Below are positions 11,401 to 60,738 of a stretch of 64,000 nucleotides of DNA, piece by piece (position 1 is the stretch's first letter; each line of letters starts with the position of its first letter). The notes under the pieces are model-generated. The model did no database searches. It had not been told where the DNA came from and saw nothing but the letters and a program-made list of their open reading frames with translations. The stretch is from a virus. Position numbers and translations under genes: made by a program. Location: the IMG/VR virus record IMGVR_UViG_3300030116_004830, positions 23,651 to 87,650 of that record; one strand, given 5' to 3'.

Positions 11401-13063
11401 TAATAATTTTCTTAGAAGTAGAGGCCACATTGTCTTGTGCGGTAAAATCTCCTGTATCTAAAGTAATAGTATTAGAAATTGATTCTGTAGCACTATCTAT
11501 ACAATAAACATCATCATTTGCCGATGTTGCTGAACCCAATACCGCTATTCTCGTATCTCTCAATATACCATCTATTCCCCAGTTAGTTCCTTCGGTTCCA
11601 TCTAAGTCGGTAGTAAACGCATCTGCGGCCCCAGTAATAGTATCGTTAGAACCCCCATTATCGTTCAATCTAACTGCGGTATTAGAATAACTTCGATAAT
11701 TTACTGCCGCAGGATTGTCTGCCTTATACATCATATCTACTAAGGTAGCCTCCATAGTAAATGGCCCATAATCTACAATATGTGCTTCATACTCTTGGTC
11801 GGTAACAAAGGTAGAATAAGTGTAGATATGGGCTGAACCAGTCCACGATGAACTTCTAAGAATATATCTCGTAGCAGGTTCTAACCTGTCTTTTCCATTT
11901 AAGAAATAAAAGAATGGTCGAGATACATGGGTGTTAATATGATGTCTTATACTAGAATCTGTAGCCTGTAAACCATAAGCACAAGCAACTAATGTTTGAT
12001 TATCTGAATCTATCTTAGGTAGATTAGAATCTAAAGAAGAAAAGACCGCAAACTTAGTATCTTTAGGAATATCTACACCTAATGAAGGACTAAATTCTAT
12101 TCTATCTCCAAAAACATCATCCTCTAATATCTCAGTAATTTTAGCAAAATGATGTTTATTTCCATCGTCAGAATAAACTAACACCCATAAATGGTCAATG
12201 TTTTGTTTTAAGAATACTTCATCATTAGCGTAACTATCAGGGGTAGTATTATTGAATCCTCTAACAACAGTTAAATCATTAGAACTAATATTGGTGATAA
12301 GCATTTCTTCATTTTTAACAATAATAATATCGTTAATCGAAAGACCACTTGCACTAGTTACTGCAACAATAGTATCAGTAGCAGTTTCACTTCCACTTAA
12401 TGTAGTTAAATGTGAAATAAATCGCTGTCCTGTTTGGGACAAAAAATCAAACGTCTTCAATTGGTTTCCTGAAGTAACTGATAGATTCGATAAATGGTCA
12501 CTAATGGTAGTAGAATTAGGATATACTCGATTTACTGCTGAATAAGTTTGAGTGGTAAAAGATAAACCGATTGTTCCATTACCTGTTGGTGCATTTGATA
12601 GAACTAAACTAGTGCCATCTGTTACTGAACTCACTGTAGTATTATCAGGTATTATTCCACCAGTAGGTCCTACGGACATTCCTGCAACTATACCTGTCGT
12701 ATCCCCACTACTTATCGTAGTATTTCCACTGCTTACTGTAAAGGTTGTAACTACTTGATGTGATTGATTGATTCCTTTAGTTACATTAGCCATTGTAACA
12801 TTATCTGCTTTGTGTATTTCATAACTATTAATTGATTCATCAGCAGTAAACGCAGTAAAGTTAGCAAACGCTTCTCCCATCGTTCCTCTAGTAAGTAGAG
12901 GATTTAGAGGGGTTTTGTAAAGCGCCTTATCGAATATATTGTCTAGATAATTAGCCGAAGAAGAAGTTGATTTTCCACTTACTACCGTTTGAGCGCTAGT
13001 GCTTTCGACATTCCCTTTACCCATAGCAAAGACACCAGTAAAATTACCCATGCCTTTGGTCAT
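2432..13063 (-). CDS. Giant 3543-aa tail-tip / baseplate hub-adhesin protein
   Basis: 10.6-kb open frame with repeated beta-rich modules. C-terminus resembles tail hub proteins (FDLYNEIIVYG...SIDKFGKK...GDIVTLDFP). Downstream of the tape measure. Confidence 0.7.
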   Translation of the reverse strand: MTKGMGNFTGVFAMGKGNVESTSAQTVVSGKSTSSSANYLDNIFDKALYKTPLNPLLTRGTMGEAFANFTAFTADESINSYEIHKADNVTMANVTKGINQSHQVVTTFTVSSGNTTISSGDTTGIVAGMSVGPTGGIIPDNTTVSSVTDGTSLVLSNAPTGNGTIGLSFTTQTYSAVNRVYPNSTTISDHLSNLSVTSGNQLKTFDFLSQTGQRFISHLTTLSGSETATDTIVAVTSASGLSINDIIIVKNEEMLITNISSNDLTVVRGFNNTTPDSYANDEVFLKQNIDHLWVLVYSDDGNKHHFAKITEILEDDVFGDRIEFSPSLGVDIPKDTKFAVFSSLDSNLPKIDSDNQTLVACAYGLQATDSSIRHHINTHVSRPFFYFLNGKDRLEPATRYILRSSSWTGSAHIYTYSTFVTDQEYEAHIVDYGPFTMEATLVDMMYKADNPAAVNYRSYSNTAVRLNDNGGSNDTITGAADAFTTDLDGTEGTNWGIDGILRDTRIAVLGSATSANDDVYCIDSATESISNTITLDTGDFTAQDNVASTSKKIITLASSVDLDHNKIYSLVDSNNEFKDSFRMANRTTDDALYSTTTGYSRYMHYCDSPLTNTIIPNAMEMIEYESVTSTGGYVDIVFADTQKILAKKIKEGDSILINHIIESETVGKERTFPIADVEYSVPITGVDTIQANNLGNQKDMKFLLSSVIPNSSTSTGSRYDPLNDTITTNIDGTLYHFNIDKIDNKASGTNNGTTQAMGVRSWRKATDTEYVLTSVTAMTTVPSFSAKAFRRKYSFLADNLLTNIPIDSKITNYILSGNHSVADNNWNRNVRDYETLIETLNPTNDSITGAGANTRPTLNVGEIELEKASHSRNNDIHLVLKGGPVTGHRIKVEYGDKHNSFLKLQTHLKDERFLENFNRTDVTPYLDKISNVSLYGYSINSGLDGGGSAYRYDLNRSDSSTNFYARGVLSYLDYFSGTIDIERTVFKGTVESVEQVIEDGMFKLKIRGRNTVSDLLGPIVNKDFKFTEDIVYSTVGPVERMAAFGQVELTTHNHTTHGTTFTDDGTYPVGTTEIQVNQISSSTTTQGTTLTIQQGDLIYTTQGVFLGRVHKITDVDSDGDFTPAVILFEEGIPTRLKDGETLMGSFYQTPSEIFPNSQDLADTSTANIYRQYIKGNTVSLAKSLSANPFNSTRVNSLLGTKDKGIIFTGGKSLTLTDDYAPFKDGTDLVGTSSSSHPLAKGYSINSPDGVDYDYPFYCNLADEITNKYGINYVNFHTVNSLTEYDVINLSSNERETIIEMAPICPAVFARIDDNPIDSRDKYLLQVGAFTSSEINGYNGVFQIAQASWMEELKQGDYIFDENGELFGKIIDISLGSSDGILNDRVAFTLDRPLFKTITATEKIMKYYGDASPAQYFSGTGIHFSNYASATTFASTEFNAAVIKSSDATAQAFLQSLEAGMRIKIEGLVSHSMYDNLGVFSIGHVFEDDTEVILFTRKHPSGKIPASGLGSFSNDSSGQTVRITVLTDYFTQGLYFLNTQGLSQGGVLTLTNPILSSPNEADGNCKPIKWASGLFHYVTDGSVAESSAGAYQPHSTALTIMSDLIDRYGNTKWRYFGLQKGKYLSYVSRRLKDGKPKTTYSFEKGRVNGYATAYRISDAKYGKNKLMKFPYGYHNNDFAWGITRMAYDSASDTLLEPYTNDSVELTNGIRKPNFFLEYLSPESRDFRPVMGSNFADFDKHGTAIVTPDHTQYRVGIYPRYMARLHDNHRGGDWQEDLDAPENSTVPHTVLKYRKWKALASDSDDFDYDITYAGGSAASYIEPNAGSSDTITESLGSQWVKIGGQNDKNNNRTFKLSALSADVAGKFTMDTTKPPFTKIGTAGVGFVGGSAKTTTGYEEITVLHPPWIGPKFDGITRAKDHWELPDPKALRWFIFSSADMYPDSMSRKHHIGYSGVVNYDSSSETAISRSFSDYSLLLKSKSSFSNSNTPHAHYEGTLQDEEETDDNYTTIPISSASIAPSEMKRFGLMRLIDCTYDWHFNLIDPERLPSDITKMTTPNFEYSRYQALKRLPLRTTGSDANFLSAFYGDGDTIINLDNNPSALLQTGDQIFTCTGHYLGKVKRTADAVTDNTCDITNGSASITCDASANVRIGMEVRPTGTISGFPDNASVVSITTGTEGTDVTEFVISANFTGSSANNVNLTFEHHIELEGASRKIIKSDGSAGLYHGYLYVVSDGTSTLAEQDYWDSFFRFRTKGKGGKNTFTAPTEKAETHMLQQMWNASYHEAASQDTTYDLIPHTRHPVNGVLPYLFYQIPYGVVEEGSNHTSHGPNRPSNGPIGLAIHNAAYEKTDAGPDDTNIDANISEPSSDDPSPKFLRSFTRNFIQAMGPHAIIDPVSNATDPTGGDTTYAFNLPSSSQIAYNPIIALPPAFRTFYATSASKISTGLTINSMQDKRYLVNRSMTPANSGVVVNESNFSSENQFTITVDDGSGGSSDAVSKFPVNSVVYDPSNNPVGKVKAVTATQITLFSRNAVALNNNDELHYNVDNTIDTEYSHPSNVLEFIQHGGNPYAGCSVISLAGYTVEDSLPTNLPVGARTLIRNLQQGITKNFGHSRPRLSAPATSDANKSEAIYGDGAGNIDTASYFNEKSNEFNFLTTLGNWKSGFANFNSDLTQNANQFSYVGQGTGYIANGVFGVFHPELFLGGICKSTLNTTGGDIDANERQEGVFTFRSINQQSRDNVSNTNKDLGVLRILSSPSPNDSSSDRNFNHNDKNSWLNFVDLTGMYLVANFGTEEGKKTSRRNFAPFSGELTVNTYGSVLADEAYDIPAAYISPLFGTDGERSTKIRVIEEDFFLSNCAYSNSNGVVTYTGDEDIRQLLRAGMLVKGHGIASFVINSVDSASQFTLSNTPTAATQSNTLGFRGSGGGSTGLDDCMVDPDHIIYVHEHRRNATGKEVAHELLIDNIPHNKSGEVQFFNNYRVMRPAETCLWPNSPNEISIGKLSGSTTKMPQSDSMYGYVPSLTNINSSNNFTGPDEEQILSNYDGTIGDNEPPMSMYLAVDMDARHSKFKEIGTVAVNDKSSTVTSSSLFTSSVIQEGDVIRLLHGNYFVKSIESTSSLTIAGQYRGTNHSGTGYVYNNTYTVLRNYSHLFNPSGNRNTFKNGEAYNMLLTDGVNKQKISMGVNTNYYDETPLCKLSIGKIEQPLLGLVSFGEIFTIKSNVPVNIEDVTSARIGSTLVIGEEVENIVNNVLSDEGISYDISDNREYPYYISPNFQGVDLFNATNFAAKYKEKEIRVDEKGVSLIKQSNDLDFRDVTLSYENNDLKIISVTRNKSTFDLYNEIIVYGNGIKSIKRNRKSIDKFGKKTLEEVNMELVSQDDVDNRAKGLLKAHSEGDDRFTVRMSITGIEFVKAGDIVTLDFPSEGVPKDTYKVYEIRRELKGLIELEVGTYRKDLANRFAELSMLNKSNSASIRGSQFTSTTAPLDFFDSVKLKELSLVIRRIGLADTNAFTLGFQTLTSRKLDFGTTMGPQETVTEIIREEDLT

Positions 13064-16341: not shown

Positions 16342-18585
16342 CTAGAACCTCACATTAGTAGACGAAGAGGTAGTTCTATTTATTTCGGTGCTAACCATTC
16401 TACCTATCTTCTTTGCAATATCTCTTAACTCACTATCAGACGCACCTAATCTTCCATTGACGTTAACACTGATATTATTTGTAACGCTCCCTCCCATCAT
16501 TGACTTAGTGGTATCGTTTGAATGAATTCTTGTTCCTCTTGGAAGATTAATTAATTCGGGACCTCTTTCACCAACCATCGACATTCCTCCTTTACTAATC
16601 CCTCCCATATGGAAAGGATTGAAAGCATCCTTTAATTTTGCAAATTCTCCTGTAATAAAATTAATAATCTTATCAATGAATTCTCCTCCCTTAGTTAATA
16701 ACATTGGAAAGAAATCATTCTGAACATATTTAGCAAATGATGATATTGCTCCTGCCACTGTGTCCGTCCAAAACTTCACTGAAAGTATTTTTTTAACTCC
16801 TGCTATTACACCCATTATAACAGTAACATATGTTTTAATTACAAACGCAACATACGCAATCGCTAATCTAATTACTAATTTTACTGCTCCTTTAAGGACG
16901 CTCCATAATATCTTGTATAATCCTTTATACAAACCTAATATTCCTTGGAAAAGTTTAGTGAATCTTTCCTTTAGTGTTCCTCCACCAAAGAATGCTTCAA
17001 AGATTAGAATGGCCCCACCAAACATATCTTTAATTCCATCAAATACTCCTCTTAGAGCATCCATCAAAGTTTCCATTACTTGCGCTTTTTCAAATATCTT
17101 TTTGATAACAACAAAGGCGAGTAATGCTCCTACTAAGAACATGATAAAATACATTGAATAGAGCATAGCCATCTTCATTACTTTACCTATAATTGAAAAA
17201 ATAGGAGTAATCTTTTTCATTAAAACTGCTCTAGCGCCGCCCTGTTTTTTAACATACGCCTGTCCTTCTGAAATTTTCTTTCTTAATCCCTCAAAGCGTT
17301 TACCTTCAGGCCCTTTCTTGCTATCTTCCTTAAGAAATTTGAATCCTTTTGAAATATTCTCAAATCCTAAACCAAAGGTCATGAATCTCTCAGTGCCTTT
17401 TCCTATGAATTTTAAAACTTTAATTCTCATTTCATGATGTTTCTTTGCGTCATCGGCTCTTTGTTGTAATGCGGCCCTTAGTTGGCCCATACTGCCTTCA
17501 TCTATTCCCTTATCACCCAATCTTCTTACACGACTACTTGCTATCCTCTGCCCTCGTTCCGCTTTCTGTCGTTTCTCAATTAATTTAGCCATAGGACCTG
17601 TTATCGCTTTACCCGTTTTAGAATCTATTCCTTTCTTAAGTTCATCTTCCGAATAAGTTGTAGTTAATTTACCCATTTCTTCCTTTATCTTTTCTAATTT
17701 CTTATCGGCTTTTATTTTCTTTTGAATTGCCGTTTCATATCTTGTTAGGTCTTCATTGGTAAACTTTGTTTTTCTTAAGAAACTCTTATTTCTTAATCTC
17801 TCTTCTCTTTCTAAGGCTTTCTGTAAGGCTTTACCCTCGGCTTTTAGATTGTCTTTTAATTGTTCATGGGTGGCTTCATATGCGTTTAATGTCCTTGCTA
17901 ATGCTAATTGTTTTGCCTTTTCTATTTTCTTAAGAGCCTGTTCCTCGGTATCTCTAGCATCTTCCGTTGCCGCCTTTAGAGCCTCAAAGGTATTTTTGTA
18001 TTCTAAATTAGATTCAATTAATTTTTTGTGGTTATTTGCCTCTCCCATTAATTTTAATTGTTTTTCTACCTGTTCTATATTGTTAGTCAATTCGCCCATA
18101 GCAAGTGCTTGCTCATTAGCGGCCTTAGTTGCTTCTTCGGTTCTACTCTGAAAACCATCCATAACTTGTCCTACGGCTCTAACATAATTTTGCAATTTCC
18201 ATAAAGGACTACCTGATAATATGCGACTAAACATAGTCCATTTTTTACCATAACCATCTACGTTATTAGCGGCCTTAGCAAACTTTCTAGTGAAACTTTC
18301 TGTTGTTGCATTAACTGTTTCTTGGGCCTTTACCAAAGAATATAACTCCGCAGTAGATTTTTTGGTTTCTTCAGTGCCATCACTTACTGCTTCGTTGTTA
18401 GCCCTTTGTGCAACTACTCCCTTCTCTAAAGCCTGTAACATTTTTTTGTTGTTATTGATTAAATGTCCCATTGCTTTATGAGTTTTCATTGTGCTTTTAG
18501 TCATAGATTCTAACATCTTTACGACTGGCTCAATATTTTTAGCAAGAGGGGCTAACTGCGAATTTATATCAGCCAATGAACTCAT
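16342..18585 (-). CDS. Tape measure protein
   Basis: Long helical protein with hydrophobic stretches. C-terminal FHMGG...VGERGPELINLPRG motif is typical of TMPs. Follows the chaperone genes. Confidence 0.85.
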   Translation of the reverse strand: MSSLADINSQLAPLAKNIEPVVKMLESMTKSTMKTHKAMGHLINNNKKMLQALEKGVVAQRANNEAVSDGTEETKKSTAELYSLVKAQETVNATTESFTRKFAKAANNVDGYGKKWTMFSRILSGSPLWKLQNYVRAVGQVMDGFQSRTEEATKAANEQALAMGELTNNIEQVEKQLKLMGEANNHKKLIESNLEYKNTFEALKAATEDARDTEEQALKKIEKAKQLALARTLNAYEATHEQLKDNLKAEGKALQKALEREERLRNKSFLRKTKFTNEDLTRYETAIQKKIKADKKLEKIKEEMGKLTTTYSEDELKKGIDSKTGKAITGPMAKLIEKRQKAERGQRIASSRVRRLGDKGIDEGSMGQLRAALQQRADDAKKHHEMRIKVLKFIGKGTERFMTFGLGFENISKGFKFLKEDSKKGPEGKRFEGLRKKISEGQAYVKKQGGARAVLMKKITPIFSIIGKVMKMAMLYSMYFIMFLVGALLAFVVIKKIFEKAQVMETLMDALRGVFDGIKDMFGGAILIFEAFFGGGTLKERFTKLFQGILGLYKGLYKILWSVLKGAVKLVIRLAIAYVAFVIKTYVTVIMGVIAGVKKILSVKFWTDTVAGAISSFAKYVQNDFFPMLLTKGGEFIDKIINFITGEFAKLKDAFNPFHMGGISKGGMSMVGERGPELINLPRGTRIHSNDTTKSMMGGSVTNNISVNVNGRLGASDSELRDIAKKIGRMVSTEINRTTSSSTNVRF

Positions 18586-19224: not shown

Positions 19225-19473
19225 TCACTCGGAAGTTTCTGAACTCTCTTTTTCCTCCGATGATTCTTGGGCTTCAATCTCCGCCTTTCTTTGTTCTTTA
19301 GCGGCCTGTCTTTCAGCCTCTTCTGCCTTGGCTTTTTCTTCTTCTGCTTTAGCCTGTGCTTTAGCCGCTTTTTCCTGAGCCTTTTTCTCGGCTCTTGTTT
19401 TCTTAGCCTCTTCTTCTTCGGCTAATCTTTGAGCATACAATCTCTTTTTCTCATATTTATCCATTCTAATCAC
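19225..19473 (-). CDS. Small E/K/A-rich coiled-coil protein
   Basis: In-operon ORF of low-complexity charged sequence. Confidence 0.6.
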   Translation of the reverse strand: MIRMDKYEKKRLYAQRLAEEEEAKKTRAEKKAQEKAAKAQAKAEEEKAKAEEAERQAAKEQRKAEIEAQESSEEKESSETSE

Positions 19474-21086
19474 CCTTGTAGAACCCAGTGAGTTTTAACT
19501 TCACACTTACTCATTGTTCTCGGCATAACAGTGCCTTCAATTGTAATTGGTCCCTTATCATCAGGAACAGTAAGAGTAGCAGTGCTTAGGAAATAATCTT
19601 GGAAGTTTAGCAAGATTTGTTCTCCGCTATCTTTATCGAATTGTAGAACAATCTCATTTGTTGAACCCAAATCTTCAGCATTATTCAACAATTCTTGGAA
19701 TAACTTATCATCAGTAACTAGAGCAGTAAAGGCAATCTCATATGTCCTTTGAGCAGGAATAGCATTCTTAATCGCTTTACTAGAAACACCAACATATCTT
19801 TTATCTTGTAGATTGTTATTAATCGTTAAAGAGAGATTGGTAATCTTTAGGAAGGTTTGACCAAAGCAACTAAACAATCCACTAGAGAAAAAGAACGGTT
19901 CTAATCCGCCATTTGCTCCTGTTCCTGATGGGTAGTTGAATAGAGATGTGTCTGTCCCTACATTATTTCTAGGAGTGTAAACTTGTGTTGTAGTCAAATC
20001 ATTAATGTAATCAACCGTTCTAGTGTTAAGGTCCATCGTCATTTTAACTTCTTCATTCTCGTTAGCAGTTAGAGTAAAAGTGTTTACTCGATTACCTCTA
20101 GCAATTCTAACAAGGGTTTCTGTTTCTGTAGCGACTCCTTGAGTAGCAGTTACATTTGATGTTTTAGCAATACTGTGTTCTAAAGAGAAAGAAGGCAAAT
20201 CAGTTCCATTAGCCTCTGAGAATTCATAGGTAATAGGGTTTTGAATTACACCTGCCGCAGTAAAAGTAGGAACAGTTAGTTTGTTCAAATTACTATGAGT
20301 ATCTATACTATGAATAACTGGGGGTAATAATTGAGTATCTTCTCTAGACCTGTAAAAAATTGGCCCTTGATTAAGATGAGCAGTTTCAAAAGAACCACCG
20401 TGAGCAGTAGAAGAAGTATCTCCTGTATCAATGTAAACTTGGTCAGTTGTTCCCGACTCTGCTAAGAACAAAGATTGAGGAACAGTAGAACCCGAAGCAG
20501 AAGTGTATTTTGCACCAGTGCATTTACCTAATGCATAATACAACCATGTTCCTTGATTAGCAATTAATCCAATATTACCTCCACTTGCGGTTTCAATTCC
20601 TTTGTATTGATAACTAAAGTTTCTACTACCTCCAAGTGAAAGATTCATCTGTTTCATCTCTATCTCAGTATTTGGGAAAGTAGCAGTTTCTACAAGGCCC
20701 ATCCAGTTATCAGCGTTTAACTTTAAAGAATTTGAACCTATTCTAGAAGCAGGACAAGGTGTTCCATAAGGATGAATATGGAAAAAGTCAGAATCATCAG
20801 AAGCAAAAGTAATAGAGGGAACTGGACTTACTGTAAATGTTGTAGTAGTATTGCTAGTAATAGTATGCATAGTAGATGCATTGCTATCGTCAGCATTAAA
20901 AATTTCTACTGTGCATCCCTTATACAAATCAGGAACTAATTCCATCGTTGTAAAAGGAGCCAACGGAGCAATTATACCCGTTGCTTCTGTTGATGCGCTT
21001 TCATCTATAAATCCACTTAGCGTCAATTCTGGAACAAACGCTATGTTTGCTTGGCTTCCTACAAATATATCTTCATTTACGGTCAT
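19470..21086 (-). CDS. Major tail tube protein (with inserted domains)
   Basis: Tube-like motifs (PSFSLE, RVNTFTLT, NLSLTINNNL, RTYEIAFT); upstream of chaperone and TMP. Confidence 0.75.
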   Translation of the reverse strand: MTVNEDIFVGSQANIAFVPELTLSGFIDESASTEATGIIAPLAPFTTMELVPDLYKGCTVEIFNADDSNASTMHTITSNTTTTFTVSPVPSITFASDDSDFFHIHPYGTPCPASRIGSNSLKLNADNWMGLVETATFPNTEIEMKQMNLSLGGSRNFSYQYKGIETASGGNIGLIANQGTWLYYALGKCTGAKYTSASGSTVPQSLFLAESGTTDQVYIDTGDTSSTAHGGSFETAHLNQGPIFYRSREDTQLLPPVIHSIDTHSNLNKLTVPTFTAAGVIQNPITYEFSEANGTDLPSFSLEHSIAKTSNVTATQGVATETETLVRIARGNRVNTFTLTANENEEVKMTMDLNTRTVDYINDLTTTQVYTPRNNVGTDTSLFNYPSGTGANGGLEPFFFSSGLFSCFGQTFLKITNLSLTINNNLQDKRYVGVSSKAIKNAIPAQRTYEIAFTALVTDDKLFQELLNNAEDLGSTNEIVLQFDKDSGEQILLNFQDYFLSTATLTVPDDKGPITIEGTVMPRTMSKCEVKTHWVLQG

Positions 21087-24304: not shown

Positions 24305-25018
24305 TCACGCAAGCCACTTAGCCCAAGCCGCACCCTTTTGAATCATCTTACCTAATCCTAATCCACTATTAGGAGGAGAGTAGGTCGCTTGACCAGTAGC
24401 AGGGTCTATCCAGTATGGATTATTGTAATTATCATAACCGCTAGGAGGAACAGGATAACCACTTTGATTGGTCATTGCACCTTGTCCCATAGCCATGTTT
24501 TGATTCATGTTCCCCATCATTGGTTGACCTTGAATATTAGCAGGAGTATTGTTTTGCATTTGTGGTTGTCCTCCCATTGCTGGTTGTCCTCCCATTACTG
24601 GTTGCCCTCCTCCATCTCCAAAACCTTGAGCCTCTAAATACTGATTCTTTGCCATTTGTCTTTGATATACAACCTCTTGATTAATTGAAGATTGTAAAAT
24701 CTGTTGAATATCTAATTGAATATTTTCTTCTGTAATTCTTTCATACTCAGCAAGACATGCCTTTTCTAGAGTAATATCTCCTTGAGTGGCTTCTAATTTA
24801 AAATGCAATTTAGTTAGCATCCTACTCATTACTCTTTCAATAACATCTTCCAATAGTTTCTCATAAGAGGTAAAGAAGGCTTCACCATGATAAAGTAAAA
24901 ACTCTTCAACATGGTTATCTTGTAGAGTCAAAAGGTTATTCATAGCCTTGAAACTCTTATCGTTGTTTTGGCTCATTTGGCTCGCTAAAGCACTGTTGCT
25001 TGTTCCTAGTAATCCCAT
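24305..25018 (-). CDS. Hypothetical protein: helical N-terminus, Q/G/M/P-rich disordered tail, amphipathic C-terminus
   Basis: GGQP-x-M repeats; ends GLGLGKMIQKGAAWAKWLA. Confidence 0.6.
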   Translation of the reverse strand: MGLLGTSNSALASQMSQNNDKSFKAMNNLLTLQDNHVEEFLLYHGEAFFTSYEKLLEDVIERVMSRMLTKLHFKLEATQGDITLEKACLAEYERITEENIQLDIQQILQSSINQEVVYQRQMAKNQYLEAQGFGDGGGQPVMGGQPAMGGQPQMQNNTPANIQGQPMMGNMNQNMAMGQGAMTNQSGYPVPPSGYDNYNNPYWIDPATGQATYSPPNSGLGLGKMIQKGAAWAKWLA

Positions 25019-25641
25019 TATTCATCACCTATTAATTCATCAATCTGTCCCATCTTACCCTTTAGTTCCATTAGTAGTATCATTAGTTTTTCTTCAGCAG
25101 TAGTCGTATCCGCCTTCGGGGGTTGTATTTCCCATCCCTTAGAGGTTAATGAAATTATATCCTTCTCCGTTAAAGCAGTAAGCGGCCCCCTACTTATTAC
25201 ATTCGGCATTCTTGCTTTGGGAATATACTTTTTGAACTCTAATCCATGTTTTTCAGCAATCAATTGTTGCTCTAACATTTCCATCTGTTTGAACATAGAA
25301 GAATGTTTAGGACAATAAGTTCCTCTTAATGGTCTACCCTTATGAACATGAGATAATGGAATAGGAGGTCTAAGTGTATCTCCTGCGTCCCACACATGAT
25401 GAACTCCACAAACTACACATCTATCTTTAATGTTAAATTTATAACCGTATTTTACCAACAATAGGCTTTTCTTTTCAGGCATTAATACCTTGGTTATCTC
25501 TTTCATTTGTTTCTTAGTATCAAGAGATTTATATTCAAAATTAATAATGGGTCCTGCGGCCCTAGCAGAGTTCTTCATTCTTAATGGGTTAATCATTGTA
25601 TTATCATTACCGATTATATTCGGTGTATATATTGCCGTCAT
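25018..25641 (-). CDS. Putative zinc-binding protein
   Basis: CVVC ... YCPKH motif pair. Confidence 0.55.
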   Translation of the reverse strand: MTAIYTPNIIGNDNTMINPLRMKNSARAAGPIINFEYKSLDTKKQMKEITKVLMPEKKSLLLVKYGYKFNIKDRCVVCGVHHVWDAGDTLRPPIPLSHVHKGRPLRGTYCPKHSSMFKQMEMLEQQLIAEKHGLEFKKYIPKARMPNVISRGPLTALTEKDIISLTSKGWEIQPPKADTTTAEEKLMILLMELKGKMGQIDELIGDE

Positions 25642-25645
25642 TTTA

Positions 25646-26323
25646 TCAATACTCCTTTATCATAGACATTATTCCTCGGTAAACCATTTCGGGGTCTGAC
25701 TTGGCAGATACGATGTATTTGAAACATGGTATTCCCTTATCTTGTAACCGTTGCATACCGAGCCTGAACGGTTCAAAAATTGGATGTTTCTCGATAGGTC
25801 CGTTGTGTTCATATTTATCCTTCCATAAATCATACTTGTTAGCCCATATGCCTACTGCGATTGGAAAGTCCTTGTCCTTCTTTCTTTTAGTTTTACCCTT
25901 TCCTAATCTCCAAAAATCATCACAAATCGTATCTACTAAAAATTGCCAAGAGAGTTGATGTTCTAAATTATAGGCTTCTGATAAATGGCGGTCATCAATC
26001 ATGAATATAAGATATTTTACCTTCCTTTTCATCATATCGTTTTTCCACGCATCCCAGTAATATGATTGACCTCCTACATCAGCAGTTTTGATTGTCCTAC
26101 TATCTTTATCTATTTTTACTGTTTTTCTAGAGGCACGATGTAAACCTTCTGTTCTATTCTGAATAACTGGAACTTCTCCTCTAGTTCTTAACTGTCGATG
26201 AAGGGTTGTTTTACCCGCCTTACTAGCACCATACACTCCAAAATTTATAGCATGAATTCTTTGGTAAAGGCTCATAGCCGCTTCTGCCGCTAAAATTGAA
26301 AAGCCTGTTAAAAGCGTAGCCAT
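25646..26323 (-). CDS. Arf/Sar-like small GTPase
   Basis: All G boxes present: G1 GASKAGKTT, G2 RT, G3 DVGGQ(x6)W, G4 NKYD, G5 SAK. N-terminal hydrophobic/amphipathic helix. Confidence 0.85.
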   Translation of the reverse strand: MATLLTGFSILAAEAAMSLYQRIHAINFGVYGASKAGKTTLHRQLRTRGEVPVIQNRTEGLHRASRKTVKIDKDSRTIKTADVGGQSYYWDAWKNDMMKRKVKYLIFMIDDRHLSEAYNLEHQLSWQFLVDTICDDFWRLGKGKTKRKKDKDFPIAVGIWANKYDLWKDKYEHNGPIEKHPIFEPFRLGMQRLQDKGIPCFKYIVSAKSDPEMVYRGIMSMIKEY

Positions 26324-26326
26324 ACA

Positions 26327-26545
26327 TTAGTCCCACCCAATTAACTCCTTAAAACCATCAATTGCCAACCCAAGTAAATCAATACCGAATGAACCCATGA
26401 TGTTACCGACCAAAAAGAAAAACACCGTAGAGCCAACGCCCCATAACCAGTATCTTACTTTTAGAAAGAAAATATCGGCAGAATGCGCTCTAGATAAATC
26501 GTATGCTAACGACTGTTCATCTACTCCTAAGAGCCTATCTAACAT
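26327..26545 (-). CDS. Small membrane protein
   Basis: Hydrophobic segment YWLWGVGSTVFFFLVGNIMGSFGI. Confidence 0.65.
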   Translation of the reverse strand: MLDRLLGVDEQSLAYDLSRAHSADIFFLKVRYWLWGVGSTVFFFLVGNIMGSFGIDLLGLAIDGFKELIGWD

Positions 26546-26557
26546 TGGACATCACCT

Positions 26558-26938
26558 TCATTCTAGTGCTTGAAGGAATGTTTCAGATACCTCATCATAG
26601 GGGGATTGTGGGCCACTGTAGTAGGTTAGATTTTTACCTTTCATGGATTCTCTAATCTTCTGCTTTTGTTGCTCATCTCTTTGTTTCTTTTCCCAATACA
26701 TATCTATCTTTCGATTCAATAACCACATTTCAAATCTATCATTCACTGCTAAATCAAACAGTGCTTTCTGTAGCATTATTACGCCTACAGTAATCAGTCC
26801 AAACAATATTGCATGTGTAACCGCAGTAAACGGTAATTGGCCACCATATGCAGAATAGAAATAAACATTCATTCCGCACATTGCGCCTACATACATTATC
26901 GTCATTATTAGCCTAGTATCTTTATTGATAGCCGCCAT
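26558..26938 (-). CDS. Two-TM membrane protein with charged C-terminal tail
   Basis: Two hydrophobic helices then a K/Q/R-rich coil. Start placed at MAAINK. Confidence 0.65.
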   Translation of the reverse strand: MAAINKDTRLIMTIMYVGAMCGMNVYFYSAYGGQLPFTAVTHAILFGLITVGVIMLQKALFDLAVNDRFEMWLLNRKIDMYWEKKQRDEQQKQKIRESMKGKNLTYYSGPQSPYDEVSETFLQALE

Positions 26939-28113: not shown

Positions 28114-29466
28114 TCACTTCAAGTTGGTGATTTTTCCTTGTCCCTTAAAGAAGGTGCAACCAGTTTCACCCATTGTTCTGTAAAGACCTCTGTTACCTAG
28201 GACTCCAACACCGAATGGGTTTCCATGAGAAATACCGTCCTCAAAGTATTGGGTAGGCTTCATTGTAGCAAACCATAGATGGTCAGTGTCTAGCAATAGC
28301 ATGTCGGATAGACCGCTTGTTGCCGCACCTGTCTTTGGCATGTCCTTACAAGGAATTAGAGGAATATCGTAGTATGTTGCAACTCTGAATCCAACTTCTG
28401 CACCCTTTACGCCCTTTACACCGTTATGGGTTGGAATAACTTCCTTAGCGTCCATGAATCTTTCTTGGCTCTGTAGCAAGTCAGACAATGCTTGAATGGT
28501 ATCGTATCCAGTTAGGATAACCTTTGGAGTTCCACCATTCAATCTTAGGTTCTGAATAACATCGTTAATGATGCTTAGAGTTAGAACACGACCCGCAGTA
28601 GCGTAAGATGCACCGTAGTTAACAACCGAATCCATGAAAGATGCGCCTGTTGCTCTTGAGGTGTTACCGTAAAGAGTTGTTACATCAGCGTCTAGGTCAG
28701 CAATAGCAGATGAAACGCTTGAAAGCCTATCAAGTTCACCACCGCTATCGGACAACTCATCGTTACTGCTAACAATCTTCAATAGAGAAGTATAGTTTTC
28801 ACGAATTCTTCCGCTTGAAGTATCTGCTCCAAGTGTATCGTAGTTCTCAAGAGGCATTACTAGCATAACCGACTGAGATTCTGCGTGGAATTTACCCATA
28901 TCCTCACGAATGAGTTTACGAATATCTCCAACACCATCATCAATCTTAGCCATTTCAGCCGCAAGTTCGGAGTAATCGAACATATGAGCGACAATCTTTG
29001 GGTTCATGTATAGAGTGGTGTATTCAGGAGCAAGGGCTTCCAACTGTGTGCTATCCAATGCTTCGTTTTCACCGACACCACCGAGCAAATCTCCATCAGG
29101 AGTTTCTGAACCTTGAACACCACTTCCAGTAGTTGCACCTACAGCGAATGCCGCCGCACTTCCACCTTGAGGTCTGTTAATCATAACTCTCCAGCCGCTT
29201 GAAGTGTATGGCCTCTTAGGTAGAATAGATAGTGGGTTGATTTCTTGGTTAATCATTGACCAAACTTTCTGACCGTAAACCATGTTGTAAAGTGCAGTTA
29301 GGTTTGTTGCCGCAGTTCCGTTAAGAGTTAGTGCAGTGTCGGACGAACCAGTGAATCCACTGTTGATTCCGCCAACAATACCTGCCGCCTTCAAAAGGTT
29401 GTTTCCACCTACGTTACCATAGGTTGCTCTTTCCAAATCTTGAATTGTGTTAATGTATTTCGTCAT
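28114..29466 (-). CDS. Major capsid protein (HK97 fold)
   Basis: About 450 aa directly after the protease/scaffold, with HK97-like elements (LSILPKRPY, PKIVAHMFDYSELA, YYDIPLIP, QGKITNL). N-terminal leader ends in LLK|A. Confidence 0.85.
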   Translation of the reverse strand: MTKYINTIQDLERATYGNVGGNNLLKAAGIVGGINSGFTGSSDTALTLNGTAATNLTALYNMVYGQKVWSMINQEINPLSILPKRPYTSSGWRVMINRPQGGSAAAFAVGATTGSGVQGSETPDGDLLGGVGENEALDSTQLEALAPEYTTLYMNPKIVAHMFDYSELAAEMAKIDDGVGDIRKLIREDMGKFHAESQSVMLVMPLENYDTLGADTSSGRIRENYTSLLKIVSSNDELSDSGGELDRLSSVSSAIADLDADVTTLYGNTSRATGASFMDSVVNYGASYATAGRVLTLSIINDVIQNLRLNGGTPKVILTGYDTIQALSDLLQSQERFMDAKEVIPTHNGVKGVKGAEVGFRVATYYDIPLIPCKDMPKTGAATSGLSDMLLLDTDHLWFATMKPTQYFEDGISHGNPFGVGVLGNRGLYRTMGETGCTFFKGQGKITNLK

Positions 29467-29499
29467 TTTTTTCATCTCCTTATTGTTTCTCTAATGGGA

Positions 29500-30987
29500 T
29501 TAGAGTTGTCCCTCCAATCTTTCAACTAGAGCGTTAATGTCGCTCCAATCCATCTTTGCGATTTCGTCACCATTAGGAATGTTAAGTTCTGCAACTGCTT
29601 CTTCTTGCTTACGAATTACAGTTTCTTCTTCTGCCTTTAGATTGTTAAGAAGGTCAGCGAATTGCTTTCTCAACTCAGTTACTTCTGCCTTAGCATCGTA
29701 GTTTGCCTTCTCAATTTCCTCGGTCTTAGCAACCATTTCAGAATTGAATCTTGCTTGGAATCCTTCCTTTACTTTATCAAAAGCCATCTTCTCAAGTTGT
29801 TCTGCCTTGAATTCAGCGTAAGCCTTCTCCAAGTTTTCAGCAGATAGGTCAAGAGTAGTTTGGTCTTCAAACTTAGCCATGTATTTGCTGTCCAATTGTG
29901 GATGAGCATCATCTACATATTCACCAGCGTTTCCTGCTTCTACTTGACCAGTAGCCAAATCAGGCTTTGACTTTCTTTCGGTATCCATGTATTCTCCACC
30001 CATACCTTTTTCGTCCATCATCTCTTTATCAGGCATATTAGGATTCATTGCTTCAACATCCTCTTCTGCGTTTTCAATTTCTTCTTCTTCTTTAGCAACC
30101 ATTTCTGTTCCCTCGGATGTTTTCTGATTTTTCTCTATGTTCTTATTAACGTTTTCTGCTGAATCCGTGTTTTCCATATCTTTCATAGCATTAAATTGGT
30201 CAACCATTTGTCTTAGTTCATCCTTTTCCATAATGCCTCTACCTAATACTCTTTCATATGGAGCCATCTCTACTTTACCAGTAGTGTTTTCCATATCTTC
30301 TTTCATAGCGTCAATTACATCTTTCTTCTTGTAATCCCCGCTAGTCAATACTTCAAGGTATTGCATTTTTACTACGCTTTCATTATTGTATGCGGAATTT
30401 GCCGCATCCAACGTCTTGTTCAGTTCTTCTAGTGCTTTGCTTATTGCATTCATTTTATCACCTTTATCCATTTTTAGTATATCGAATTTTGCTTCAGGGT
30501 TAATACCCTTTTCACAAATCGTTACTTCATGGAGTTCTAATTTGGAGATTTCATTGTATTCTCCGTATTCTTTGTGGGTCTTCTTTCTCTTTTCTAAGGC
30601 TTGACCCCCAATACTAAATGAGCGTAGAGAACCATCTCTGATTTCTCTACCAACCTCTTTTGCCTTTTCAATATCTTCTCTCATCTTAATGACGACAAAG
30701 AATCCAACATCGTCTACTTCTGTCTTGTAGAGTTTACCTGTCTTATCTCTGTAACTAGGAATAACTTCTCCTACTTGAACATTAGAATGATTAGTCATTA
30801 CGTTTCTAAACTTCGTAATTTTCATGTATTTGTTTACTGCTTCTTGTAGTGCATCAAGAGTAATAAGGTCGTTTTGCTTATCTACCATTTCAATAGAAGC
30901 ATAACCTCCAATGACTAAGTTATTGGATTTAAGGATGGTAAAGGGGTCATTTCTAATAGCGTTGATAGAAGTGACCGCACTACCCAT
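29500..30987 (-). CDS. Prohead protease fused to a scaffold domain
   Basis: IGGYAS..VDKQND, NHSN (His), SFSIGG (Ser), LHEVTIC; acidic coiled-coil C-terminus. Start placed at MGSAV. Confidence 0.9.
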   Translation of the reverse strand: MGSAVTSINAIRNDPFTILKSNNLVIGGYASIEMVDKQNDLITLDALQEAVNKYMKITKFRNVMTNHSNVQVGEVIPSYRDKTGKLYKTEVDDVGFFVVIKMREDIEKAKEVGREIRDGSLRSFSIGGQALEKRKKTHKEYGEYNEISKLELHEVTICEKGINPEAKFDILKMDKGDKMNAISKALEELNKTLDAANSAYNNESVVKMQYLEVLTSGDYKKKDVIDAMKEDMENTTGKVEMAPYERVLGRGIMEKDELRQMVDQFNAMKDMENTDSAENVNKNIEKNQKTSEGTEMVAKEEEEIENAEEDVEAMNPNMPDKEMMDEKGMGGEYMDTERKSKPDLATGQVEAGNAGEYVDDAHPQLDSKYMAKFEDQTTLDLSAENLEKAYAEFKAEQLEKMAFDKVKEGFQARFNSEMVAKTEEIEKANYDAKAEVTELRKQFADLLNNLKAEEETVIRKQEEAVAELNIPNGDEIAKMDWSDINALVERLEGQL

Positions 30988-31010
30988 GCGTGATACTTTT
31001 TTCACAATTT

Positions 31011-31025: not shown

Positions 31026-33509
31026 CTAGAATTTTAATTTAGAATCCTTATCTTCTCTAATATCCCATAGTCCGTCATCAGTTTCAGGGTCCACAGGTTT
31101 CTGTTCTATTCCAGTCCAAGCAAGCCACTTATCTTCGCCCTTTATCGGTATAACTCTAACATGAAATTTAGTATCGAATTTATTTCCAGTTAAAATGTAT
31201 TCATGATAACCATGACGCTGAACCCCTAACTCTACTTTTCCTGAATCTATGAGTTTACCCGTTTCTATTTTCGTTACAACTTGTGCAGGGTATTTGCCTG
31301 ATTTACCGAATAGAGTAAAGATGTCGTCTTCGTTTTCTATCTCTATATCCCAACCAATAGTTTCGTCTGATAATTTGAATAAGATAGAAAGATGACCGTT
31401 ATCTTTGTAGTAGATTTTGAAATCACCATTACGGTATTCATCAGGGGTTTTATATTTTGATTTTAAAATGTCCTTTTCTAAAATATCAGGTTCAGCAAAA
31501 AATAATTTCTCTTCTTCATTGTAACCAATGTCTTCTAGATTCTTTAGATAATTCTTCAATCTTGTAGGTTTACTATCAAAGATATTGTTGTAAGGGGTTT
31601 TCTGTTTCTCATTAACGAACTGTTCTATCTTAGAAAACGGAGATTCGCCATTCTCTAAAAGATAATTTCTTATTGATACTCTAAATGCTCCCTTTTCTCT
31701 TTTAATCAGTTCTTCTATTTCTGTTTTCCAAACGTCAATATCAAGTAATGCATTCTTAGCCATTATATTATTTTCTTCAAAACCATAGAAAGTAAACCCA
31801 TCTAAATCAGATTTAATGATAGCAGTAGCATCACCATGAATAGTATCGCTTATACGAAATCCTTTCTCTAATGCTTCTATATCATAATTAAGAGATTTCT
31901 TAGTATCTTGAGATAATAGGTCTAAAGTGATTAATTTTTCAGGAAGTTCAACTTCGGGTATTTCTATTACTTTAGCCGAAAAGAGCGTGTATCCCTTTTC
32001 GTTTTTCTTTACTTCATCTATCTTTACACGAATAATACTTCCAACTTCAACATCTATTTTTGTATTTAACGCCTTACCAACATTAAGATATTCTCTATCG
32101 TTAATTGTCTTAGTGTCCGAATAATTATCTTTATCTGTTAATGGTCCTGCCCCTAAAGTATAGGTAAACATATTTGATTTAGTGGTTTTCTTATCTAAAA
32201 CCATCATATCTAAATCTACAAACTTTTTCCATTTAATCCATTTAGGGTTTTTCTTAGTTCCTATAAAGTAAGTGGAAGTTACATCTTTTATTACTACCCC
32301 TTCAGCAGTAGGAATCTCCATAATTTCTTTTGCATATTCTTCCACTTCTTTCACAGAATCAGCATAACGAGTATCCTTCTTAGAAGGGAACGCTAACTTT
32401 TCATGGGAATGTGTAGAATAATTATTGAATAGAATAGTCATTCTTTCTATGAGTTCTTTCTCATGTAACTCCTCACTTTCATGTCGCATTATGTCGAACA
32501 CATGCGCTCTTAATTCTGTATCAGATTTTTTGTCCTTAAAAATTCTAGCAACTACCTCTGCTCGGTGTAGGGCTTCCTTACCTTTGAATAATAGAAGTTC
32601 AGCATCGAGGATACAATCTCCAAAATGCTTGGCTTTCATCACCTTAACTTGTTCAGGACATTTCTTGGTAATGTCCTTACCGTTGAAAGAAAATATCTTG
32701 ATTTGATTATCTATCTTATGAATTTGAATTCTCATTCCATCATACTTTTCTTGGACTACCCATTTACCAGTAAATCCTCTTAACTGTTCTAAGTCATCAA
32801 TATCGAATATACGATACATCGGTTTGTTAGGAACCAAGAAATGTTCTTCCGCCTTCATCGCCTTTTCTAGGCTAACCGTCTTATCCCAATTTTTACGGCT
32901 ATGATGGTTCACAAATATTTCTTCTAACAATTTCTTAGCGCCTAAATATTTACCTTTGATTCTTTTTGTGTCTTTATCGTCACCATAATGTTCGACCACA
33001 AAATCTAGAATATCCTTTTCAGCAAGGTTTAGTCCCTTGAATCCCTCTGTAATACTATCGGGTTCCAAATCATTCTTTTCCCATGCCTCATCACTAAGGG
33101 CTTTATCGTGGTTTCTCATAGCCCAGTGAATAAATTTAGCAAATAGAGATTCGTTTTCTATTAGTTCATCTAATACATCTTCACCATATTTAGTAGAGAA
33201 TGGGTCCTTTACAATACCCGATGAATATCTCAATTCTTTAACTTGAGAATATATTTTTCTAGCATCATCACTTTCTACGTTTTCTGCCTCATCAGAGAAC
33301 AGTTCCTTTTCATTAATTATTTCTTTAATCTCTTTACTGAACTCATCAATGTCGTCCCATTGTTCTCTAAGTGTTTTAATTTCGCCTATCCATTTATCGC
33401 CGTATCTTTTCTTATCTGATAAAGCAGACAAGTAAGACATTCTCATTTTTTCAAAGAATTGAATTACTCTAAGGGTTAGAGGGTCATCTTTGATAACGGA
33501 AACAGGCAC
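31026..33509 (-). CDS. lig: ATP-dependent DNA ligase with extra N- and C-terminal domains
   Basis: Motif I QEKYDGMR, III ILDAEL, IIIa HVFDIM, IV EGVVIK, V WIKWK, plus OB fold. C-terminal domain resembles a degenerate LigD phosphoesterase. Confidence 0.9.
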   Translation of the reverse strand: MPVSVIKDDPLTLRVIQFFEKMRMSYLSALSDKKRYGDKWIGEIKTLREQWDDIDEFSKEIKEIINEKELFSDEAENVESDDARKIYSQVKELRYSSGIVKDPFSTKYGEDVLDELIENESLFAKFIHWAMRNHDKALSDEAWEKNDLEPDSITEGFKGLNLAEKDILDFVVEHYGDDKDTKRIKGKYLGAKKLLEEIFVNHHSRKNWDKTVSLEKAMKAEEHFLVPNKPMYRIFDIDDLEQLRGFTGKWVVQEKYDGMRIQIHKIDNQIKIFSFNGKDITKKCPEQVKVMKAKHFGDCILDAELLLFKGKEALHRAEVVARIFKDKKSDTELRAHVFDIMRHESEELHEKELIERMTILFNNYSTHSHEKLAFPSKKDTRYADSVKEVEEYAKEIMEIPTAEGVVIKDVTSTYFIGTKKNPKWIKWKKFVDLDMMVLDKKTTKSNMFTYTLGAGPLTDKDNYSDTKTINDREYLNVGKALNTKIDVEVGSIIRVKIDEVKKNEKGYTLFSAKVIEIPEVELPEKLITLDLLSQDTKKSLNYDIEALEKGFRISDTIHGDATAIIKSDLDGFTFYGFEENNIMAKNALLDIDVWKTEIEELIKREKGAFRVSIRNYLLENGESPFSKIEQFVNEKQKTPYNNIFDSKPTRLKNYLKNLEDIGYNEEEKLFFAEPDILEKDILKSKYKTPDEYRNGDFKIYYKDNGHLSILFKLSDETIGWDIEIENEDDIFTLFGKSGKYPAQVVTKIETGKLIDSGKVELGVQRHGYHEYILTGNKFDTKFHVRVIPIKGEDKWLAWTGIEQKPVDPETDDGLWDIREDKDSKLKF

Positions 33510-37145: not shown

Positions 37146-38804
37146 TCATCCAACTCTCCTTTCAGTCCTTCTATCTACGTTATTGTTAGCCGCTTCCTTG
37201 GGTAAGCCTGTAGCCCGATTAGGTGGCCCTACACTCATCTTAGGTTTAGGACTTGCGCCTTTTACCTTAGCAGGTTGCCCTGCTTGTTCCATTGTTGGTT
37301 TAGTTCCAGCCTCCATCATTTGACCTAATTGTGATTGGTCAATATCTGTTCCCGCATAAGGGTCAGATTCAAACTTTTCATCTTCTGATTGTCCTTCTCC
37401 TTCTGCTTCGGGTTGGGGTTCAGGTTTCTTGTAAATGAACTTACCATTTTCATCCATATCAACTTCAAATCCTAAATTTTTAATTTGACCAGCAATATTA
37501 ACTTCAATTTCTCTTTTTCTCATTTTAGCAATTTCATCCTCTTCTTCGGAAGGTGGTAGAATTATATCCCAGTCAGTAATACCGAACTGCTTAATCACAA
37601 ACGGGAACACATATTTGTTCCATACATTTTGAGCCATTTCTACAGCCCTATTGGTAACAAGTATTTGCATACCTTCATTGTTTAATCCACCACTGGTAGA
37701 ATTATCCGCCATGAAGATTTTACTTACACCATAGAAAGCGGCGACTCTATCTCTCAAATCTTCCTTAACAGAAATATAATCCATTTCCTTTAGAGAATCC
37801 ATGAACTTAACCCATTCAACAGAACCTCTACCGTTTTCTGCTTCTATTCCCATTACAGGAATAAAGTGAGCATCCTGTTCCATCTTTTCTTTAACGCCTC
37901 TCCAAAAGGTCTTCATCGAATCTATGTTTCTTGTTTGAACAGCCAGTAAACCTCTAGGCATTCTAGCCTTTGTATATGCTTGATTAATATAATTCTCCAT
38001 AGCAATTAATGTAGTTAGATGATTAAACATTGTAATGACTGGACTAGTTCCATAGAGCCTACTTGGTTTATATTTGCTAAAGTGTAAAACCTCTCCTTTA
38101 ATGAAATTCTGAGCCTCCCCATGTCCTCTGTTTACATAATGAACAGGATACAAATCTCCTCCACATTCCCCACATTTCTCATGAGGATTATCTGCCATTA
38201 CATGTCTATGGTGTAAACAAGTAAACGATGAAGCCCCTTTGTTACCATCATCATCACAAGTAATAGCCATAGTAACTGGGTCGCCACGATACATTTCTTT
38301 GATTCTATGCGCTCTAATATTTCCATTACCATCAATGAAATATTCCTTGACTAGAACTAAGTAAGCATCATCCATAATATTGAGGTCATCTTCTAATTCC
38401 TTTAGAACATCAATAAACATCTGTTCCGATTGATTAACATAACTACTGCCCATGAATTTATTAGCATACAATTTTTGTTTCATATCAGGTTTTCTTAAAT
38501 TAGTAGAACCGCAATTTGCACATTCATTAGTTGTCTCTTCGTGTTCATGTCCACAATCATTACACTTTACTGCAAATCTAGGACTCCACTCATAGCCTCT
38601 TCTAAAAATTTCATTCTTTAATTGAGTAATACAAGTCCTAAGAATAACTGAACTATCAGCAATATGATAGATGATAGGTCCAGTCATCTGCAAAGGATGA
38701 TGTCTTTCTTGTATCCCCATTTGGTAAACTTCTCTATCAGCAGGAACAGGAGTTGTTCTCCTAAAGAAATTAGTAATAGAAAATCTTCTTTTTTCTTCTA
38801 CCAT
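37146..38804 (-). CDS. Portal protein with zinc-ribbon insertions
   Basis: GEVLHF..YKP..LYGTSP, MPRGLL and RVAAFYGV portal motifs; CxxC pairs (CNDC/CANC, CLHH/CGEC). Confidence 0.85.
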   Translation of the reverse strand: MVEEKRRFSITNFFRRTTPVPADREVYQMGIQERHHPLQMTGPIIYHIADSSVILRTCITQLKNEIFRRGYEWSPRFAVKCNDCGHEHEETTNECANCGSTNLRKPDMKQKLYANKFMGSSYVNQSEQMFIDVLKELEDDLNIMDDAYLVLVKEYFIDGNGNIRAHRIKEMYRGDPVTMAITCDDDGNKGASSFTCLHHRHVMADNPHEKCGECGGDLYPVHYVNRGHGEAQNFIKGEVLHFSKYKPSRLYGTSPVITMFNHLTTLIAMENYINQAYTKARMPRGLLAVQTRNIDSMKTFWRGVKEKMEQDAHFIPVMGIEAENGRGSVEWVKFMDSLKEMDYISVKEDLRDRVAAFYGVSKIFMADNSTSGGLNNEGMQILVTNRAVEMAQNVWNKYVFPFVIKQFGITDWDIILPPSEEEDEIAKMRKREIEVNIAGQIKNLGFEVDMDENGKFIYKKPEPQPEAEGEGQSEDEKFESDPYAGTDIDQSQLGQMMEAGTKPTMEQAGQPAKVKGASPKPKMSVGPPNRATGLPKEAANNNVDRRTERRVG

Positions 38805-60630: not shown

Positions 60631-60640
60631 CCATACAATT

Positions 60641-60712
60641 GGGCGTATGGTGTAATGGATAGCATTTTGGCCTTCTAAGCCGAAGATAGGGGTTCGATTC
60701 CTCTTACGCCCG
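60641..60712 (+). tRNA. tRNA-Arg(TCT), no encoded CCA, no intron
   Basis: Acceptor GGGCGTA/TACGCCC, anticodon arm TTGGC-CTTCTAA-GCCGA, T arm GGTTCGATTCC. AGA is visibly the common Arg codon in this genome. Confidence 0.93.
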
Positions 60713-60738
60713 TATGGTAATAATAAAGAGATGATAAT

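Follow-up and report, generated by a model that had tools for sequence, protein, structure and literature searches.

How do tailed viruses of archaea leave their hosts? A recent review describes the main players in their egress as completely uncharacterized and adds that no holins have been identified in archaeal viruses (PMC10791045). Here, the question is raised by a block of five genes (positions 24305-26938) in a 64,000-nucleotide (nt) stretch of viral DNA, bases 23651-87650 of IMG/VR record IMGVR_UViG_3300030116_004830. The record measures 87.65 kilobases (kb) with an estimated completeness of 96%, and the whole 64,000-nt stretch is referred to below as the window. The block encodes an Arf-like small GTPase together with two small membrane proteins, a Cys/His protein, and a Q/G/M/P-rich protein, and its conservation as a block is far beyond chance. 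We consider it likely to be a membrane-associated GTPase switch module. A more specific reading, which we favor with reservations and at somewhat less than even confidence, is that the cassette forms an autonomous membrane module in the late operon of magrovirus-type archaeal tailed viruses, with a virus-specific Arf-like GTPase at its core. Its purpose may be virion release, a function that we infer tentatively.

All five open reading frames (ORFs) of the block exist on the minus strand, with intergenic distances of -1 to 12 nt. In order of transcription, with protein lengths in amino acids (aa), they are as follows.

26558..26938, minus strand: small integral membrane protein, 126 aa; hydrophobic segments, one strong and one borderline, then an extended C-terminal tail rich in K/R/E/Q
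26327..26545, minus strand: small membrane protein, 72 aa; polar N-terminal part, then one hydrophobic segment (residues 37-62)
25646..26323, minus strand: Arf-like small GTPase, 225 aa; assigned from motifs and predicted fold
25018..25641, minus strand: Cys/His protein, 207 aa; C-x2-C ... G-R-x-x-G-T-Y-C-P-x-H; directly 3' of the GTPase gene
24305..25018, minus strand: Q/G/M/P-rich protein, 237 aa; MG[LFW][LFW] N terminus, ordered middle of ~110 aa, low-complexity region, and C-terminal amphipathic segment

The strongest evidence that these genes work together is that they have moved as a unit. Gene order was assessed in the 80 best loci of close relatives, where the succession of protease, capsid, small genes, 126-aa gene, 72-aa gene, GTPase, Zn-type gene (encoding the 207-aa Cys/His protein), Q/G-rich gene (encoding the 237-aa protein), ..., and tail tube is kept wherever the contig reaches. 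The same ordered gene set recurs in ~180 related viral contigs belonging to at least four clades, between which the GTPases are ~30% identical. In three (nearly) complete genomes of a second clade, the cassette lies on the same strand 8 to 12 kb upstream of the terminase gene and at least 20 kb from the capsid gene, with a methyltransferase gene and a GP88-like gene as neighbors. Because the ordered block occupies a different genomic position in this clade, the cassette has moved as a unit, which argues that the five genes function together; its relocation away from the capsid gene also speaks against a role for them as ordinary head or neck components. The preliminary description of this DNA had treated the five genes as one system, and their order is indeed kept in the 80 close loci and in three further viral clades.

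The partners remain recognizable by size and composition across clades. Outside the window's clade, the first gene encodes a protein of 145 to 260 aa with one or two hydrophobic segments and the second a protein of 73 to 97 aa, usually with one. The gene that follows the GTPase gene directly in all clades encodes a 256- to 340-aa protein with a CP-x-H motif, a recognizable homolog of the Zn-type protein of the window. The product of the fifth gene (190 to 272 aa) has a Q+G+M+P fraction of 0.31 to 0.45 and an MG[LW]F-type start. Across 162 loci, the Zn-type gene was present in 151, the Q/G-rich gene in 146, the 72-aa gene in 133, and the 126-aa gene in 155. In two clades, a sixth gene encodes a two-segment membrane protein of 81 aa with the C terminus ...RQFASFR (L086:9318-9563, L177:7392-7634, and L178:7374-7619) and is followed by a gene for a 236-aa Cys-rich/helix-turn-helix protein that starts with MAGRQTRKNC; neither protein has a counterpart in the window.

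Several loci contain further ORFs in or near the cassette. Some close relatives have an extra ORF of 178 to 188 aa between the GTPase and Zn-type genes or between the 72-aa and GTPase genes (L055:6666-7205, L076:5462-5995, and L076:6672-7235; also in L043, L064, L072, L074, and L075). These ORFs match no Pfam family and may represent a mobile insert or an accessory subunit. In second-clade relatives, ORFs of ~2000 aa without any Pfam or PHROG match lie directly upstream of the cassette (L115, L125, L147, and L154). A few kb downstream of one second-clade cassette is a 282-aa ORF (L086:10941-11789) that appears by eye to be of the HMG-CoA-lyase or aldolase type and is a possible auxiliary metabolic gene.

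The GTPase family itself is, in effect, virus specific. More than 335 near-full-length homologs with 60 to 95% identity were retrieved, and 296 viral contigs carry the gene; the homologs were retrieved from marine samples and runs, Tara among them. When a profile was run against 1.84 billion representative proteins, only 95 matches were returned, including a few full-length relatives with ~30% identity. One of these (P0133, ~30% identity) is found on 81 further viral contigs with 41 to 55% GC, and P0131 and P0140 are found on 4 and 13 further viral contigs, respectively; no viral loci were found for P0130 and P0157. Deposited genomes of phages and archaeal viruses (50,697) contained no match, and the matches in 400 sampled Pseudomonadota genomes were all of a generic GTPase kind (30 to 34 bits). 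Among 185,579 species genomes, only two matches were obtained, both on contigs of a single bacterial metagenome-assembled genome. In this assembly, assigned to Maricaulis sp. (G005, L162-L166), three different contigs carry the viral GTPase (E values of 5e-84 to 5e-71), and these are most likely misbinned magrovirus-type contigs rather than evidence of a bacterial gene.

All five genes are real and under purifying selection. Ratios of nonsynonymous to synonymous substitution rates (dN/dS), computed pairwise against eight relatives, lay between 0.04 and 0.22 for the cassette genes and did not differ in range from those of the capsid gene; the genes are therefore constrained. By gene, the values were 0.09 to 0.10 for the 126-aa gene (where dS was unsaturated), 0.09 to 0.19 for the 72-aa gene, 0.05 to 0.12 for the GTPase gene, 0.07 to 0.22 for the Zn-type gene, and 0.04 to 0.18 for the Q/G-rich gene. 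The first gene most likely begins at 26938 and encodes 126 aa, because a longer ORF (to 27007) overlaps the upstream gene and homologs start at the methionine of MAAI....

The motifs reported in the preliminary description of the GTPase (GASKAGKTT, DVGGQ..W, NKYD, and SAK) are present exactly as quoted, and the full set required for nucleotide binding is in place: GASKAGKTT at residues 32-40, the switch-I Thr58, DVGGQ at 82-86 with Trp at 90 and 93, NKYD at 162-165, and SAK at 206-208. Motifs G1 to G5 (GxxxxGKT, Thr58, DxGG, NKxD, and SAK) are conserved, and an AlphaFold2 model shows a six-strand, five-helix fold. This model, built from a 46-sequence alignment, reached a predicted local distance difference test (pLDDT) score of 93.3; an alignment of 26 close homologs gave a pLDDT of only 64, and that model was discarded. 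In a fold search, the single predicted conformation resembled GTP-bound forms.

Placement of the GTPase relative to Arf depends on the depth of the comparison. The window protein scored 21.9 bits against Pfam Arf (PF00025), 0.4 bit under the cutoff of 22.3, with MMR_HSR1 next; across 39 family members, Arf was the most frequent Pfam match (23/39). Distant relatives exceeded the Arf cutoff (P0169, 57.2 bits; P0182, 39.5 bits; P0157, 27.2 bits), scoring 12 to 22 bits above Ras. When the 46-sequence family profile was searched against PDB, the top match was 8OUN (1.1e-13), followed by Arl3, Arf1, Arl8, and Arl1, with Rab33B at 1.5e-9; 8OUN is the Asgard ArfR protein GerdArfR1 (bioRxiv 10.1101/2024.02.28.582541). 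Margins in the structure comparison were consistent, though modest, and Foldseek alone did not separate Arf from Rab for the viral protein. A single-sequence phmmer search of PDB was uninformative (best E value, 0.16), NCBIfam returned only the generic small_GTP domain below its cutoff, and ESM Atlas yielded viral clusters followed by bacterial "Arf family" clusters, which serve as leads only. A search for longer, fused versions of the GTPase found none, which is weak evidence.

Individual residues give a similarly mixed picture. DxGG, the Trp seven residues after the catalytic position, and NKxD are invariant in 158/158 viral GTPases, and this Trp (Trp93 in the window protein; Trp78 in Arf1) aligns with the Trp of ArfR; of the Arf hallmarks named in the preliminary description, the Trp that follows DVGG is thus supported. 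In Arf1, a second Trp (Trp66 of WDVGGQ) directly precedes the G3 Asp and is part of an aromatic triad. The viral GTPases differ from the Arf family at this site, since the residue before Asp82 is Ala81 in the window protein (TADVGGQ) and Ala, Ser, or Thr in relatives. They further differ in being ~45 residues longer, with two family-specific inserts (a conserved polybasic hairpin at ~135-155 and a loop after NKxD), in having SAK at G5, as in Ras and Rab, and in a catalytic residue that is often E or D. Among 82 close homologs in the window's clade, this residue is Q in 38 and E in 44; a second clade has Q, E, or D, and a third has the H found in Sar1. Judged by motifs and the predicted model, the protein qualifies broadly as an Arf-like small GTPase, and we do not claim membership in the Arf/ArfR clade.

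A helix is predicted at residues 2-23 of the GTPase and is conserved in all family members. The preliminary description had noted its hydrophobic character, which is borne out, and had likened it to the amphipathic helix of Arf, a likeness that is less well supported: the viral helix is hydrophobic with a low moment (hydrophobicity [H], 0.73; hydrophobic moment [muH], 0.21) compared with Arf1 (0.38 and 0.42) and is without a myristoylation-type context. More distant relatives have N termini that are plainly transmembrane-like. SR-beta is anchored by an N-terminal transmembrane helix, and the N termini of the distant viral GTPases recall this mode of anchoring by analogy.

Characterization of the four partners relied on composition, hydropathy, and alignments. 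For the 126-aa protein, hydropathy supported one of the two transmembrane segments originally assigned to it and gave only borderline values for the second; its layout of hydrophobic segments and a charged C-terminal tail is holin-like. It matched no Pfam, PHROG, or NCBIfam family, save for one chance-level PHROG match, and the 72-aa and 237-aa proteins had no family matches in the same three libraries. The single hydrophobic segment described for the 72-aa protein was recovered. In alignments of the 207-aa protein, C75, G79, G102, T108, C110, and H113 are invariant; the zinc binding originally attributed to this protein therefore stands as a zinc-type assignment by sequence pattern (C75, C110, and H113), and the protein may be a partner of the GTPase, of zinc-ribbon type, or may regulate it. 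It had no sequence relative in Pfam, PHROG, NCBIfam, or PDB (best E value of the PDB profile search, about 1), and ESM Atlas yielded no lead above 0.8. The Q/G/M/P-rich tail of the 237-aa protein terminates in GLGLGKMIQKGAAWAKWLA and contains the amphipathic segment GAAWAKWLA, in agreement with the amphipathic end first described.

With respect to lysis, no holin, endolysin, or other lysis-category family was detected among the ~40 window proteins scanned against Pfam and PHROGs, consistent with the earlier remark that none is recognizable. Apart from the 126-aa and 72-aa products, the late operon of the window encodes no small membrane protein. Like phage holin cassettes, the block combines small membrane protein(s) and a highly charged C-terminal tail with a location beside structural genes; unlike them, it encodes no endolysin, and none of its products matched a holin family. 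We know of no holin system that includes a small GTPase.

The closest functional precedent, by analogy, is the ArvABC system. Haloferax volcanii ArvA (OapA), for which Arf is the closest Pfam family, has an N-terminal amphipathic helix and drives the formation of extracellular vesicles; its operon partners are ArvB and the Zn-ribbon protein ArvC, a suggested GTPase-activating protein (GAP), and ArvABC acts on the cytoplasmic membrane of Euryarchaeota, budding vesicles (PMC10927574). A small GTPase that has Arf as its closest Pfam family and an N-terminal helix, encoded beside a zinc-type protein, is common to both systems, with ArvA compared here by its description. The OapB (PF09846, ArvB) and OapC (PF09845, ArvC) profiles gave no match at E values of ≤10 in four viral genomes (G000, G001, G003, and G004) but did match in the Haloferax control; the viral block is thus not a copy of arvABC. 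A different Cys/His protein holds the position of ArvC, and the cellular operon has no equivalent of the two (or three) small membrane proteins or of the Q/G/M-rich protein. ArfR proteins are reported to be almost exclusive to Asgard archaea (bioRxiv 10.1101/2024.02.28.582541), whereas the viral GTPase is encoded by a virus of probably non-Asgard archaea. Among giant eukaryotic viruses, mimivirus has a Rab; the protein described here differs in being Arf-like, in belonging to an archaeal tailed virus, and in having dedicated viral partner genes.

How might such a module operate? Late in infection, the GTP-bound GTPase would be held at the cytoplasmic membrane by its N-terminal helix and basic loop, adjacent to both small membrane proteins. 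The zinc-type protein may tune the nucleotide cycle, as do ArfGAPs or as proposed for ArvC, and the Q/G/M-rich protein would be a recruited effector that deforms or breaches the membrane, with the 126-aa two-segment protein and its charged tail acting in a holin-like manner. The most likely outcome would be timed release of virions from a presumably wall-less host, via membrane rupture or vesiculation. The occurrence of the N-terminal hydrophobic helix throughout the family and the conserved polybasic loop support the membrane-module reading. Taken in its strictest form, in which the cassette is the missing egress machine composed of an Arf/ArvA-like switch, holin-like proteins, a zinc-type regulator, and a low-complexity effector, the proposal is rather doubtful.

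Several points weigh against the membrane-module reading and its link to release. The catalytic residue of the viral GTPases is variable (Q/E/D/H), and the N-terminal helix, not being classically amphipathic, could pack against a partner instead of a membrane. OapB and OapC are unmatched in the viral genomes, as noted above, and none of the four GTPase partners has a detectable homolog of known function in Pfam, PHROG, or NCBIfam or, for the Zn-type protein, in PDB or ESM Atlas. The cassette of the window lies within the head-tail operon, which also fits a role in assembly, and the host is uncultivated.

A role in virion morphogenesis is an alternative suggested by this location. The GTPase and its membrane partners would then act at the membrane as a tether or chaperone for assembly of the prohead or portal or for DNA packaging, much as the T4 portal has a membrane chaperone, and the Q/G/M-rich protein would be a scaffold-like or decoration component. 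The block does lie between capsid and tail genes in one uninterrupted operon, both in the window and in its 80 closest relatives, and in other clades it is still on the same strand and upstream of the terminase gene. Nevertheless, its position relative to the head genes is not kept, given the distances from the terminase and capsid genes in the three second-clade genomes. Membrane proteins are normally not needed for the heads of tailed viruses, and halovirus relatives share the capsid module, yet the GTPase is unmatched in the 50,697 deposited genomes. We regard morphogenesis as unlikely. That the five genes are mere neighbors, with the GTPase acting on its own (in translation or assembly, for instance), is far less probable still. 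Adjacency within one clade proves little, because whole structural operons are syntenic in these viruses; however, the five-gene set keeps its composition and order after relocation and across ~30% identity, and the Zn-type gene is recognizably homologous and always directly follows the GTPase gene.

Host takeover or exclusion is a further alternative. The GTPase would mimic or hijack a small-GTPase pathway of the host, such as one for vesiculation, cell division, or biogenesis of the envelope, or the membrane proteins would block superinfection or a membrane-based defense; virion release would not be the direct purpose. Vesicle formation in Euryarchaeota is controlled by host small GTPases, accessory ORFs are inserted in some relatives, and the family is virus specific and fast evolving, with ~30% identity between the GTPases of clades whose capsid proteins are 46% identical. 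These features are offset by the near-universal presence of the cassette, in an order kept across four clades and in late/structural operons rather than early regions, and by dN/dS values as low as those of the capsid gene, unlike typical arms-race genes. On balance, takeover seems as improbable as morphogenesis, and a membrane module that may serve virion release is the reading we retain.

The genomic setting bears on which virus carries this module. The window is AT rich (~36% GC), and a single long minus-strand operon runs from ~52 kb down to base 1. The following features were assigned, the terminase, portal, and protease genes by Pfam/PHROGs scans.

40161-41612, minus strand: terminase
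38804-40222, minus strand: 472-aa ORF with an HNH-endonuclease-like part (phrog_5046, 6.7e-7, residues 301-415), between terminase and portal
37146-38804, minus strand: portal
31026-33509, minus strand: ATP-dependent DNA ligase, 827 aa (PF01068, 1.7e-27), directly upstream of the prohead protease and within the structural operon
29500-31005, minus strand: prohead protease
28114-29475, minus strand: HK97-type major capsid protein (PF17236, 5e-8; phrog_24667, 9e-24), upstream of the cassette
19470-21086, minus strand: tail tube protein (PF18906 Phage_tube_2, 2e-9; phrog_290), downstream of the cassette
16342-18585, minus strand: tape measure protein (library scan)
2432-13063, minus strand: 3543-aa ORF without any Pfam family, downstream of the tail genes; presumably a giant tail fiber or host-recognition protein
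60640-60713: tRNA-Arg(TCT)
G000:C1:963-2381, outside the window: Cpn60/TCP1-family chaperonin (match, 1.3e-42)

The cassette had been placed between capsid and neck genes. The capsid gene is upstream, separated from the cassette by three small genes, and the gene identified downstream is that of the tail tube. A PHROG "tail terminator" match of a 149-aa ORF (E value, 0.0014; 47 residues) was judged to be due to chance, as were matches to Mo25, Pup, and EAD7.

The closest deposited relatives of the capsid protein are from haloarchaeal tailed viruses (HCTV-1 and HVTV-1) and methanogen viruses. Magroviruses are 65 to 100 kb in size and possess a halovirus-like structural module, in which an inserted homing endonuclease has been reported, as well as chaperonins; groups A and B have a second ligase embedded in the structural module, tRNA-Arg occurs in group B, and a thermosome-type gene is a feature of groups A and D (PMC5434244). 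The present record agrees with this description in size, halovirus-like capsid module, second ligase, Cpn60, tRNA-Arg, and marine source, and one second-clade contig has a thermosome-type gene. The virus is thus a magrovirus-like archaeal tailed virus; assignment of marine group II archaea as the host rests on the inference made for magroviruses (PMC5434244).

The GTPase domain call itself is not new, because source databases already label a few of the homologs "GTPase SAR1 family protein." The apparently new elements are a conserved, mobile cassette of five or six genes, its distribution over deep clades of marine viruses that are very abundant, and its link to the question of egress; the magrovirus and archaeal-virus texts searched make no mention of a GTPase encoded by these viruses, and the cassette is absent from the magrovirus papers among them. 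The cassette offers a concrete handle on egress in archaeal viruses, as expression, mutation, and reconstitution of its five small proteins do not require a cultivated host. Arf-like GTPases would also extend, beyond those of Asgard archaea and eukaryotes, to a large family confined to viruses that comes with a candidate regulator and candidate effectors of its own, and such a family bears on the origin of GTPase-driven membrane remodeling. If the cassette does prove to be an egress machine, Arf-type switches with dedicated partners would have evolved or spread in the non-Asgard archaeal virosphere.

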